This document shows positions 1 to 17,115 of a stretch of 64,000 bases of DNA, in pieces. Source of the DNA: Escherichia coli (lineage in GTDB: Bacteria; Pseudomonadota; Gammaproteobacteria; Enterobacterales; Enterobacteriaceae); the NCBI RefSeq assembly GCF_048403405.1, contig NZ_CP183129.1; one strand, given 5' to 3'. The notes beneath the pieces are model-generated. The model did no database searches. It saw nothing but the letters and a program-made list of their open reading frames with translations, and was not told the DNA's origin. Numbering within the stretch: position 1 is the first letter of the stretch; each line of letters starts with the position of its first letter. Made by a program: the position numbers and the translations under genes.

Positions 1-1862
1 GCTATAGTGATCCCAATCAGGTTGAATTCTATACTTCGGGCCGCACTTCCAATGAAGCTGCCTTTCTTTATCAGCTTTTTGCTCGTGAATACGGGAGCAA
101 TAACTTCCCCGACTGCTCCAACATGTGCCATGAACCGACCAGTGTGGGTTTGGCAGCGAGTATCGGTGTAGGTAAAGGGACCGTGTTGCTGGAAGACTTT
201 GAGAAATGCGATTTAGTCATTTGCATTGGGCATAACCCTGGTACAAACCACCCTCGCATGTTGACTTCGTTGCGCGCTTTAGTGAAACGAGGAGCGAAAA
301 TGATCGCCATCAATCCTCTACAGGAACGTGGCCTGGAGCGATTTACCGCACCGCAAAACCCGTTTGAAATGCTGACGAACTCTGAGACTCAGTTGGCCAG
401 TGCCTACTACAACGTGCGCATTGGTGGTGATATGGCGTTGCTCAAGGGGATGATGCGCCTGTTAATTGAGCGCGATGATGCTGCAAGCGCCGCAGGTCGG
501 CCCTCATTGCTGGATGACGAATTTATTCAAACGCATACCGTCGGCTTTGACGAGCTACGCCGTGACGTTCTCAATTCCGAGTGGAAAGATATCGAGCGTA
601 TTTCTGGACTAAGTCAGACTCAAATCGCCGAACTGGCTGATGCATATGCCGCTGCCGAACGCACCATTATCTGTTACGGAATGGGGATCACTCAGCACGA
701 ACATGGTACCCAGAATGTACAGCAACTGGTCAATCTGCTGTTGATGAAAGGTAACATTGGCAAGCCTGGTGCGGGTATCTGCCCACTACGAGGTCACTCT
801 AATGTACAGGGCGACCGAACCGTCGGTATCACCGAGAAACCGTCTGCAGAGTTTCTGGCTCGCCTGGGTGAGCGCTATGGTTTCACCCCACCTCATGCAC
901 CTGGACATGCTGCAATTGCCAGCATGCAAGCAATATGTACGGGGCAGGCTCGAGCATTGATCTGCATGGGGGGCAACTTTGCACTGGCAATGCCAGATCG
1001 GGAAGCGAGCGCTGTACCGTTAACACAATTAGATCTGACGGTACACGTAGCCACTAAGCTTAACCGCTCTCATCTGCTGACCGCACGGCATAGCTATATT
1101 CTGCCGGTTCTGGGACGCAGCGAGATTGACATGCAAAAAAGCGGTGCGCAGGCGGTAACCGTTGAGGATTCAATGTCGATGATTCATGCCTCGCGTGGCG
1201 TGTTAAAACCCGCCGGTGTAATGCTGAAATCAGAGTGTGCAGTGGTCGCGGGAATCGCGCAGGCAGCACTACCCCAGAGCGTGGTAGCCTGGGAGTATCT
1301 GGTGGAAGATTATGATCGCATTCGCAATGACATTGAAGCTGTGCTGCCAGAGTTCGCCGACTATAACCAGCGCATCCGTCATCCCGGTGGTTTTCACCTG
1401 ATAAATGCAGCTGCTGAAAGGCGCTGGATGACGCCGTCAGGTAAGGCTAATTTCATTACCAGTAAAGGGCTGTTAGAAGATCCCTCTTCAGCGTTTAACA
1501 GTAAGCTAGTCATGGCGACAGTACGCAGTCACGATCAGTACAACACGACGATTTATGGTATGGATGATCGCTATCGAGGGGTATTCGGTCAACGAGATGT
1601 GGTCTTTATGAGTGCTAAACAAGCTAAAATTTGCCGTGTAAAAAACGGCGAAAGAGTTAATCTTATTGCGCTTACGCCAGACGGTAAGCGAAGCTCACGC
1701 CGCATGGATAGATTAAAAGTGGTCATTTACCCTATGGCTGACCGCTCACTGGTGACCTATTTTCCAGAATCGAATCACATGCTAACACTTGATAACCACG
1801 ATCCATTAAGTGGCATTCCTGGCTATAAAAGTATTCCGGTTGAATTAGAACCATCAAATTAA
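1..1862 (+). CDS. ydeP: Molybdopterin oxidoreductase YdeP (acid-resistance protein), 5'-partial; reading frame is open from window start
   Basis: Frame open from nt 3 to stop at 1862; 579-aa ORF-track product resembles formate-dehydrogenase-like molybdopterin oxidoreductases; position upstream of safA-ydeO matches E. coli. Confidence 0.85.
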
Positions 1863-1875
1863 TTCGCCTCCTCAT

Positions 1876-1906
1876 TTCTTCTGCTGTCATCCGCACAGCA
1901 GAAGAA
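1876..1906 (+). terminator. Hairpin downstream of ydeP (12-bp perfect stem ttcttctgctgt/acagcagaagaa, 7-nt loop)
   Basis: Perfect inverted repeat read directly; followed by a T-containing tract. Confidence 0.5.
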
Positions 1907-1980
1907 TTCCTCATTGACCATTGTCGCGCAATTTACTCACATGTGCTAAATTAAACTGCTCGTTATAAGATATATACCTC

Positions 1981-1998
1981 CGCCTACAGCTGTAAGAA
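1981..1998 (+). promoter_or_regulatory. Candidate EvgA box (cgCCTACA-gc-TGTAAGAA) upstream of safA-ydeO
   Basis: Inverted repeat resembling the EvgA consensus as I recall it (TTCYTACA-N2-TGTARGAA); located about 110 bp upstream of safA. Confidence 0.45.
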
Positions 1999-2109
1999 AC
2001 TCCGCTCAGTACTGAAGCGCCAGTCCTATTTCCTCTATTCTCCAGCCTGTTATATTAAGCATACTGATTAACGATGCTTAACGTCATTCGTTTAATAAAC
2101 ACATTTGAA

Positions 2110-13662: not shown

Positions 13663-13924
13663 TAACAGCCCCGTCAACACATCGTTGGCGGGGATTTTAT
13701 CAATATTCGCTATTTTTATGTAATAATTTTATAAATGCGTTCAAAATAATAACCAAGTACTAATAGTGATATTTTAAGGTCTGATTTTTACGTGATAATT
13801 CAGGAGGCGTAGAAAGCGCATAAAAATAACAACATAAAACACTTTACCACCACCCAAAAATTCTCTATTGCATTGTTTTTTAATGAAAAAACATTATTCT
13901 CGTAATATTTCACGATAAATAACA

Positions 13925-13944
13925 TTAGGATTTTGTTATTTAAA
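13925..13944 (+). promoter_or_regulatory. GAD box (TTAGGATTTTGTTATTTAAA) in the gadB promoter
   Basis: Exact 20-bp match to the GadE/GadX-binding GAD box as I recall it, about 80 bp upstream of the gadB start. Confidence 0.7.
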
Positions 13945-14023
13945 CCCGAGTCCTTTGCACTTGCTTACTTTATCGATAAATCCTACTTTTTTAATGCGAT
14001 CCAATCATTTTAAGGAGTTTAAA

Positions 14024-15424
14024 ATGGATAAGAAGCAAGTAACGGATTTAAGGTCGGGACTACTCGATTCACGTTTTGGTGCGAAGTCTATTTCCACTAT
14101 CGCAGAATCAAAACGTTTTCCGCTGCACGAAATGCGCGACGATGTCGCATTTCAGATTATCAATGACGAATTATATCTTGATGGCAACGCTCGTCAGAAC
14201 CTGGCCACTTTCTGCCAGACCTGGGACGACGAAAATGTCCACAAGTTGATGGATTTATCCATTAACAAAAACTGGATCGACAAAGAAGAATATCCGCAAT
14301 CTGCAGCCATCGACCTGCGTTGCGTAAACATGGTTGCCGATCTGTGGCATGCGCCTGCGCCGAAAAATGGTCAGGCCGTTGGCACCAACACCATTGGTTC
14401 TTCCGAGGCCTGCATGCTCGGCGGGATGGCGATGAAATGGCGTTGGCGCAAGCGTATGGAAGCTGCAGGCAAACCAACGGATAAACCAAACCTGGTGTGC
14501 GGTCCGGTGCAAATCTGCTGGCATAAATTCGCCCGCTACTGGGATGTGGAGCTGCGTGAGATCCCTATGCGCCCCGGTCAGTTGTTTATGGACCCGAAAC
14601 GCATGATTGAAGCCTGCGACGAAAACACCATCGGCGTGGTGCCGACTTTCGGCGTGACCTACACCGGTAACTATGAGTTCCCGCAACCGCTGCACGATGC
14701 GCTGGATAAATTCCAGGCCGACACCGGTATCGACATCGACATGCACATCGACGCCGCCAGCGGTGGCTTCCTGGCACCGTTCGTCGCCCCGGATATCGTC
14801 TGGGACTTCCGCCTGCCGCGTGTGAAATCGATCAGTGCTTCAGGCCATAAATTCGGTCTGGCTCCGCTGGGCTGCGGCTGGGTTATCTGGCGTGATGAAG
14901 AAGCGCTGCCGCAGGAACTGGTGTTCAACGTTGACTACCTCGGTGGTCAGATTGGTACTTTCGCCATCAACTTCTCCCGCCCGGCGGGTCAGGTAATTGC
15001 ACAGTACTATGAATTCCTGCGCCTTGGTCGTGAAGGCTATACCAAAGTACAGAACGCGTCCTACCAGGTCGCTGCCTATCTGGCGGATGAAATCGCCAAA
15101 CTGGGGCCGTATGAGTTCATCTGTACGGGTCGCCCGGACGAAGGCATTCCGGCGGTTTGCTTCAAACTGAAAGATGGTGAAGATCCGGGATACACCCTCT
15201 ACGACCTCTCTGAACGTCTGCGTCTGCGCGGCTGGCAGGTTCCGGCCTTCACTCTCGGCGGTGAAGCCACCGACATCGTGGTGATGCGCATTATGTGTCG
15301 TCGCGGCTTCGAAATGGACTTTGCTGAACTGTTGCTGGAAGACTACAAAGCCTCCCTGAAATATCTCAGCGACCACCCGAAACTGCAGGGTATTGCCCAG
15401 CAGAACAGCTTTAAACATACCTGA
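14024..15424 (+). CDS. gadB: Glutamate decarboxylase beta (PLP-dependent)
   Basis: 466 aa from [14 protein letters not shown]…; aggag RBS; followed by gadC. Confidence 0.95.
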
Positions 15425-15579
15425 TAACGTTTAACGGTAACGGTGTCCCGAAACGCACCCGTTTCGGGACAATTTCCAAAGTCTGTTCACTGGCATTAGC
15501 AACGGAAAATATTGTTCTGAATACGCTTCAGAACAAAACAGGTGCGGTTCCGACAGGAATACCGTTTTAGGGGGATAAT

Positions 15580-17115
15580 ATGGCTACATCAGTACAGACA
15601 GGTAAAGCTAAGCAGCTCACATTACTCGGATTCTTTGCCATAACGGCATCGATGGTAATGGCTGTTTATGAATACCCTACCTTCGCAACATCGGGCTTTT
15701 CATTAGTCTTCTTCCTGCTATTAGGCGGGATTTTATGGTTTATTCCCGTGGGACTTTGTGCTGCGGAAATGGCCACCGTCGACGGCTGGGAAGAAGGTGG
15801 TGTCTTCGCCTGGGTATCAAATACTCTGGGGCCGAGGTGGGGATTTGCAGCGATCTCATTTGGCTATCTGCAAATCGCCATTGGTTTTATTCCGATGCTC
15901 TATTTCGTGTTAGGGGCACTCTCCTACATCCTGAAATGGCCAGCGCTGAATGAAGACCCTATTACCAAAACTATTGCAGCACTCATCATTCTTTGGGCGC
16001 TGGCATTAACGCAGTTTGGTGGCACGAAATACACGGCGCGAATTGCTAAAGTTGGCTTCTTCGCCGGTATCCTGTTACCTGCATTTATTTTGATCGCATT
16101 AGCGGCTATTTATCTGCACTCCGGTGCCCCCGTTGCTATCGAAATGGATTCGAAGACCTTCTTCCCTGACTTCTCTAAAGTGGGCACCCTGGTTGTATTT
16201 GTTGCCTTCATTTTGAGTTATATGGGCGTTGAAGCTTCCGCAACCCACGTCAATGAAATGAGCAACCCAGGGCGCGACTATCCGTTGGCTATGTTATTGC
16301 TGATGGTGGCGGCAATCTGCTTAAGCTCTGTTGGCGGTTTGTCTATTGCGATGGTCATTCCGGGTAATGAAATCAACCTCTCCGCTGGGGTAATGCAAAC
16401 CTTTACCGTTCTGATGTCCCATGTGGCACCGGAAATTGAGTGGACGGTTCGCGTGATCTCCGCACTGCTGTTGCTGGGTGTTCTGGCGGAAATCGCCTCC
16501 TGGATTGTTGGTCCTTCTCGCGGGATGTATGTCACAGCGCAGAAAAACCTGCTGCCAGCAGCATTCGCTAAAATGAACAAAAATGGCGTACCGGTAACGC
16601 TGGTCATTTCGCAGCTGGTGATTACTTCTATCGCGTTGATCATCCTCACCAATACCGGTGGCGGTAACAACATGTCCTTCCTGATCGCACTGGCGCTGAC
16701 GGTGGTGATTTATCTGTGTGCTTATTTCATGCTGTTTATTGGCTACATTGTGTTGGTTCTTAAACATCCTGACTTAAAACGCACATTTAATATCCCTGGT
16801 GGTAAAGGGGTGAAACTGGTCGTGGCAATTGTCGGTCTGCTGACTTCAATTATGGCGTTTATTGTTTCCTTCCTGCCGCCGGATAACATCCAGGGTGACT
16901 CTACCGATATGTATGTTGAATTACTGGTCGTGAGTTTCCTGGTGGTACTTGCCCTGCCCTTTATTCTCTATGCTGTTCATGATCGTAAAGGCAAAGGGAA
17001 TACCGGCGTCACTCTGGAGCCAATCAACAGTCAGAACGCACCAAAAGGTCACTTCTTCCTGCACCCGCGTGCACGTTCACCACACTATATTGTGATGAAT
17101 GACAAGAAACACTAA
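15580..17115 (+). CDS. gadC: Glutamate:GABA antiporter GadC
   Basis: 511-aa polytopic APC-family transporter immediately downstream of gadB. Confidence 0.95.

Follow-up and report, generated by a model that had tools for sequence, protein, structure and literature searches.

The first 17,115 nucleotides of a 64,000-nucleotide stretch of Escherichia coli DNA (the window, 64 kb in all) hold, with a probability that we put at roughly 95%, an ordinary and intact segment of the E. coli chromosome, equivalent to genes b1501-b1492 of K-12 MG1655 and including the acid-resistance modules ydeP-safA-ydeO and gadBC. Two short regulatory sites accompany these modules, a predicted box for EvgA upstream of safA and a GAD box, the site of the RcsB/GadE heterodimer, upstream of gadB. 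Both sites, together with the identities of the genes, had been claimed in an earlier note made from the sequence alone, and our analysis bears them out. Positions 1-17115 are 100% identical to strain 4621 (NZ_CP103479.1, 2650122-2667236) and at least 80% of this region is covered in 4581 of the 5426 complete E. coli genomes. We took gene coordinates from RefSeq's annotation of this matching strain 4621 sequence, where a position in the window equals the locus position minus 3000. The genes, their order and their relative orientation (ydeP, safA, ydeO, ydeN, ydeM, yneP, yddA, yddB, pqqL, gadB, gadC) are those of b1501-b1492 in K-12 MG1655, with which the region is collinear and reversed relative to the K-12 numbering.

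The EvgA box of the safA-ydeO promoter is the 18-mer CGCCTACAGCTGTAAGAA at 1981-1998 (no strand assigned), which ends 111 bp ahead of safA and was recognised by weight matrix, by consensus match and by conservation. Compared with our working consensus, TTCYTACA-N2-TGTARGAA, it carries two mismatches, in the two outermost bases of the left arm, which matches at six of its eight positions; the right arm is perfect consensus and a perfect 10-bp palindrome, TACAGCTGTA, lies at the centre. When the motif was re-derived from K-12, the regions upstream of safA, ydeP, emrK/evgA, frc, yfdX and yegR each contained a single match that stood out, with 0-2 mismatches, and the second-best match had 5-7 mismatches except at yfdX, where a second site has 3. 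The ydeP, emrK/evgA, frc/yfdW, yfdX and yegR promoters thus share with safA an 18-bp inverted repeat of this type, the frc site being a perfect palindrome and the safA and ydeP boxes being degenerate in the outer two bases of the left arm (CG, TG, AT or AG where the consensus has TT). We left safA out and made a symmetrised weight matrix from the other five K-12 EvgA-target sites; it gave 1981-1998 a score of 19.1 bits, ranking it first among the approximately 128,000 positions of the 64 kb; the next best site in the window scored 9.0 bits, 10 bits lower, and in 30 block-shuffled windows the top score was 13.1 bits on average and 16.6 bits at most.

The box also stands out by its conservation. 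In K-12 it is found at the same place and shares 17 of its 18 bases with the window, the box core and the 19 nucleotides that follow it being unchanged and the outermost base being T instead of C. Among nine diverse strains, selected across the identity range of the ydeP-safA spacer, bases 1982-2017 (the box core and 19 nucleotides downstream) are invariant, and the only difference within the 18-mer is at base 1981, which is C in the window and T in K-12 and most strains. A conserved core inside a variable spacer supports a function of the EvgA box. Judged by its sequence and conservation, CGCCTACAGCTGTAAGAA thus appears to be an EvgA box, orthologous to the K-12 safA (b1500)-ydeO site. The primary definitions of the EvgA box are said to be those of Masuda & Church (2002 and 2003), Ma et al. 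(2004) and Itou et al. (2009), and mutation of the repeat before b1500-ydeO reportedly reduced EvgA-induced expression of ydeO in the 2003 study of Masuda & Church. Direct binding of EvgA to the safA-ydeO promoter has been published (PMC9496106; PMC5706723), as has its binding to the inverted repeats ahead of yfdX and yfdW (frc) (PMC3720670).

The second site, the GAD box TTAGGATTTTGTTATTTAAA, lies on the plus strand at 13925-13944, 80 bp before the gadB ATG, and is an exact 20-mer match. This 20-mer, which we take to be the GAD box, was checked by alignment of the gadB and gadA promoters. With up to 3 mismatches tolerated it is still the sole match in the 64 kb, and 100 shuffles yielded none. 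In the alignment of the window gadB, K-12 gadB and K-12 gadA promoters the 20 columns of the box are identical and form the only long common block upstream of the core promoter. The published GAD box is 20 bp long, centred 63 bp before the gadA and gadBC starts and placed 16 bp upstream of the -35 element (PMC2887963), and the length and the 16-bp spacing are the same here. The gadB core promoter (13961-13989, plus strand), with hexamers read from the sequence, has a -35 element TTGCTT at 13961-13966, beginning 16 bp after the GAD box as in the published spacing, and a -10 element TACTTT at 13984-13989. Between and partly over these lies the RcsB box CGATAAATCCTA at 13974-13985, in which C replaces the G of the gadA counterpart GGATAAATCCTA, as in PMC2887963. 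From the -10 element and the identity with K-12 we infer a transcription start in this strain at about 13996-13998, and a start near 13997 would place the centre of the GAD box at about -63.

In K-12 gadB the GAD box, -35 element, RcsB box, -10 element and leader are all identical to those of the window, and approximately 15 substitutions fall 60-140 bp upstream of the GAD box. The gadA promoter (K-12 b3517, in the acid fitness island) has the identical 20-bp GAD box, the same -35 TTGCTT and the same -10 region, with a single base of difference in the RcsB box; however it belongs to another locus, beside gadX, gadW and gadY, and the sequence upstream of its GAD box is unrelated to that of gadB. 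Both motifs in the region match the K-12 sequences, and the GAD box in addition fits the published gadA/gadB arrangement. Where the earlier note proposed a scan with a GadE matrix, naming GadE is a simplification, as the active species is the RcsB/GadE heterodimer and GadE by itself shows no binding (PMC2887963).

The proteins of both modules were assigned by requiring a score at or above the curated equivalog (NCBIfam) or gathering (Pfam) cut-off. Of ydeP the window has just the last 619 codons, up to position 1862 on the plus strand, with 140 codons at the 5' end and the promoter lying beyond the window edge, and the truncated protein still reaches 1485.9 bits against a cut-off of 1473 for the NCBIfam equivalog NF007406, its match being limited to profile positions 141-759 of 759, which reflects the removal of the first 140 codons by the window edge. 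SafA (2110-2307, plus strand), a membrane connector of 65 amino acids that activates PhoQ (PMC5706723, PMC9496106), matches Pfam PF17073 with a score of 156 against a cut-off of 27 (E = 2e-46) and is 94% identical to K-12 SafA, with 4 differences in a BLASTP alignment of 64 residues. YdeO (2382-3143, plus strand), an AraC-family activator of gadE and of six other promoters elsewhere in the genome (PMC4222967), scores 604 bits against 348 for NCBIfam NF007407. The glutamate decarboxylase GadB (466 amino acids; 14024-15424, plus strand) scores 692.7 bits against 380 for NCBIfam TIGR01788, and GadC, the glutamate/γ-aminobutyrate (GABA) antiporter (511 amino acids; 15580-17115, plus strand), matches NCBIfam TIGR00910 over its full length with 1028 bits against 673.5. 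The gadC stop codon ends exactly at 17115.

In the cascade that would run through this locus, EvgS would sense mild acid pH and phosphorylate EvgA, both proteins being made elsewhere in the genome, and phosphorylated EvgA would bind the inverted repeat at 1981-1998 and switch on safA-ydeO, with a paralogous box and promoter just outside the window driving ydeP. SafA would activate the PhoQ kinase, as published (PMC5706723), and YdeO would activate gadE and its six further promoters. GadE together with RcsB would then activate gadBC by binding the GAD box (13925-13944), which is 16 bp away from the -35 element, and gadA would be activated likewise; GadB would consume one proton per glutamate decarboxylated and GadC would exchange glutamate for GABA. 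The order EvgAS > YdeO > GadE and the requirement for gadE in the induction of gadB/gadC by YdeO are established (PMC4222967), and the published steps of the scheme were drawn from PMC5706723, PMC9496106, PMC4222967 and PMC2887963. Binding and activation are thus adopted from the literature, and the sequences of the sites, their uniqueness and conservation and the identities of the proteins come from the present analysis. All of the cis elements and genes that the cascade needs from this locus are present, intact and conserved. The finding is already known, EvgAS > YdeO > GadE, SafA-PhoQ and RcsB/GadE at the GAD box being textbook regulation of the acid-resistance system AR2, and it serves mainly as a calibration point, in that two short motifs and the genes around them were recognised from raw sequence. 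With the known sites and genes intact, the region can be used as the positive control that had been suggested, and as each checkable detail held this supports trust in the annotation made by the same reader elsewhere in the window.

One part of the earlier description, that the circuit is physically clustered here, stands only in part. YdeO and SafA, as nodes, and YdeP and GadB/GadC, as effectors, are encoded in the region, but evgA, evgS and gadE are absent from the annotation of the whole 64-kb window, and ydeO is the sole regulator of the evgA/ydeO/gadE trio found in it; the K-12 positions are 2.48 Mb for evgAS, 3.67 Mb for gadA and 1.57-1.59 Mb for this region. A self-contained EvgA-YdeO-GadE circuit, with all three regulators nearby, is therefore not what the region contains. 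It could still be argued that the 17 kb form one functional acid-resistance island in which proximity counts, with ydeO acting locally on gadBC or with the block co-transcribed or co-regulated, as both modules serve AR2, lie on the same strand 11 kb apart, have AT-rich regulatory stretches of 36-40% G+C and are retained in this arrangement in most E. coli genomes. We consider this very improbable. Approximately 10.5 kb of unrelated genes separate safA-ydeO from gadBC, namely a sulfatase system (ydeNM) and a set comprising an ABC exporter, a TonB-dependent receptor and a protease (yddAB, pqqL), and motif scans of the window found no additional GAD box or EvgA-type site between the modules. Intrinsic terminators follow ydeO (3191-3213, plus strand; a stem of 8 pairs, 6 of them G-C, and then a T run), ending the safA-ydeO unit, and pqqL (13669-13693, plus strand; 10 pairs, 7 of them G-C, and then ATTTTAT), the latter insulating gadB against upstream transcription.

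Published work and natural deletions point the same way. The seven direct YdeO targets known from chromatin immunoprecipitation on arrays (ChIP-chip) all lie outside this region, and YdeO acts on gadBC by way of GadE only, its induction of gadB/gadC depending on gadE (PMC4222967). Natural strains moreover lose safA-ydeO yet keep ydeP, pqqL and the genes downstream. In strain 7_33_46A, IS903B sits right after the hairpin that follows ydeP (its locus position 4038 onward) and the deletion takes away safA, ydeO, ydeN, ydeM, yddA and part of yddB at its 5' end, and strain MP1 is without a 13-kb segment, a natural loss of the safA-ydeO node (PMC5706723). Given the absence of evgAS and gadE, the 10.5-kb gap, the terminators and the YdeO targets elsewhere, the adjacency of the two modules is real and is without demonstrated mechanistic meaning.

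A further alternative is that safA-ydeO is expressed solely by read-through from the ydeP promoter, the box at 1981-1998 being a vestigial duplicate. Directly after the ydeP stop codon is a hairpin (1876-1906, plus strand) that RNA folding shows to have a perfect 12-bp stem and a 7-nucleotide loop, with a folding energy of -17.5 kcal/mol (z = -4.7) and an invariant sequence in the nine strains. The terminator scan did not call this hairpin an intrinsic terminator. It is without a T-rich tail and is therefore probably either a leaky terminator or a stabiliser of RNA 3' ends that permits read-through into safA-ydeO. The missing T tail fits the reported ydeP-safA-ydeO unit, which PMC11052181 words as the 'ydeP-safA-ydeO operon', alongside an internal EvgA-dependent safA-ydeO promoter.

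The two promoters are moreover paralogous, so that one of them could be a relic. The EvgA box of ydeP itself, ATCCTACATCTGTAAGAA, is found in the strain 4621 flank, 661-678 nucleotides before base 1 of the window. Comparison of safA (1981-2095) with the ydeP upstream region (strain 4621 locus 2323-2437) showed that the two remain collinear and ungapped for approximately 115 bp past the box, with 58% identity downstream of the box where 28% would be expected, a difference of approximately 7 standard deviations. From this alignment the entire EvgA-responsive promoter module appears to have been duplicated, beyond the binding site alone. The safA promoter core and leader (1999-2095, plus strand), delimited by this ungapped paralogy and by alignments among strains, offers two -10 candidates between which the sequence does not fix the transcription start. 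One is TCTATT at 2034-2039, with a -35-like CTGAAG at 2012-2017, which is variable among strains and in register with a good TATATT of the ydeP promoter; the other is an extended TGnTATATT at 2048-2056, which is invariant among strains. Exclusive read-through is nevertheless highly unlikely, since the box and the 19 nucleotides downstream are invariant within a variable flanking spacer, which indicates constraint, and safA-ydeO has been treated as an operon with an EvgA-bound promoter of its own (PMC9496106, PMC5706723).

Several observations weigh against our assignment of the two sites and are gathered here. The consensus TTCYTACA-N2-TGTARGAA, which we take to be that of the EvgA box, is backed by de novo comparison of the six K-12 promoters, and a loose search with it (up to 3 mismatches, 64 kb) is expected to give 0.53 chance matches and is weak evidence by itself. 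The C at 1981 is one further departure from this consensus. In addition the safA and gadB promoters were both missed when 1800-3600 and 13600-17300 were scanned for the sigma-70 consensus, a failure that is expected of activator-dependent promoters and carries no information for these or for sigma-S-type promoters, and the core elements were therefore read by eye. Finally, the support from binding and expression for both the EvgA and the GAD box comes from the literature. A repeat search with a 6-nucleotide seed and a short distance limit listed neither the safA box nor the ydeP hairpin, as a result of its parameters and not of the absence of either. That the palindrome ahead of safA arose by chance and plays no part in regulation, as the expected number of loose matches, the 6 of 8 fit of the left arm and the unlisted repeat could be taken to suggest, is the least credible alternative of all in view of its score above both the shuffle maximum and the next real site, its presence at the same place in K-12, its invariant core in a spacer whose identity is no more than 80-95% in approximately 90% of matching records, the same box and collinear downstream promoter ahead of ydeP and the published binding of EvgA (PMC9496106).

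An EvgA box under constraint upstream of safA thus remains our reading, and the spacer around it is unusually variable between strains. The ydeP-safA spacer (1863-2109) is more divergent, with the identities to the window given above for matching E. coli records, than the 17-kb region overall, which is 95-99% identical. The K-12 spacer has 94% mean column identity to that of the window in the pairwise comparison, and the window spacer is a minority allele, at least 95% identity being found in approximately 525 records. There is a slim chance that this allele, which besides its C at 1981 has A within a candidate -10 element and a number of leader changes, tunes the EvgA drive on SafA/YdeO in its lineage; if this were so, cis-regulatory variation would join the known natural variation in EvgS sensing.

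The genes between the two modules follow the RefSeq annotation. ydeN (3545-5227) and ydeM (5279-6436), both on the plus strand, encode a sulfatase and maturase, and a small open reading frame for 40 amino acids resembling yneP (6402-6524, minus strand) runs antisense over the 3' end of ydeM; it is yneP in the K-12 annotation and hypothetical in strain 4621. There follow, again on the plus strand, yddA (6727-8412) for the ABC transporter/exporter protein, yddB (8450-10822) for the TonB-dependent receptor and pqqL (10879-13662) for the M16 protease. An Rfam scan found no RNA family within 1-17115. The G+C content falls to 36-40% at 2000-4000, 5500-7000 and 13000-14500, corresponding to safA-ydeO, the ydeM-yddA junction and the region upstream of gadB, and is 52-56% within ydeP and gadB; such low G+C is usual in AT-rich regulatory DNA of the H-NS type, which has been described for these loci.

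Further features were seen elsewhere in the 64-kb window. A match to the Rfam family STnc490, a Hfq-binding small RNA, was found on the minus strand at 34259-34382 (146 bits), adjoining an IS200/IS605 transposase gene (33792-34250) that is inserted between yddM and fdnI. The Rfam element SECIS_3 (38395-38453, minus strand; 84 bits) lies within fdnG, as expected for formate dehydrogenase-N. Between yddG and narU are genes that RefSeq names ompC ('porin OmpC') and leucine-rich-repeat protein (40408-41508 and 42999-44252), whose K-12 counterparts, yddL and yddK, are presumably degraded or different. A match to group II intron domains D1-D4 (60051-60159, minus strand; 48 bits, E = 1e-6), which may be an intron fragment or remnant, occupies a gap in the annotation, with a degraded ISAs1 transposase gene (59092-59642) on one side and, on the other, a pentapeptide-repeat gene and then an RHS core gene (60228-64000).

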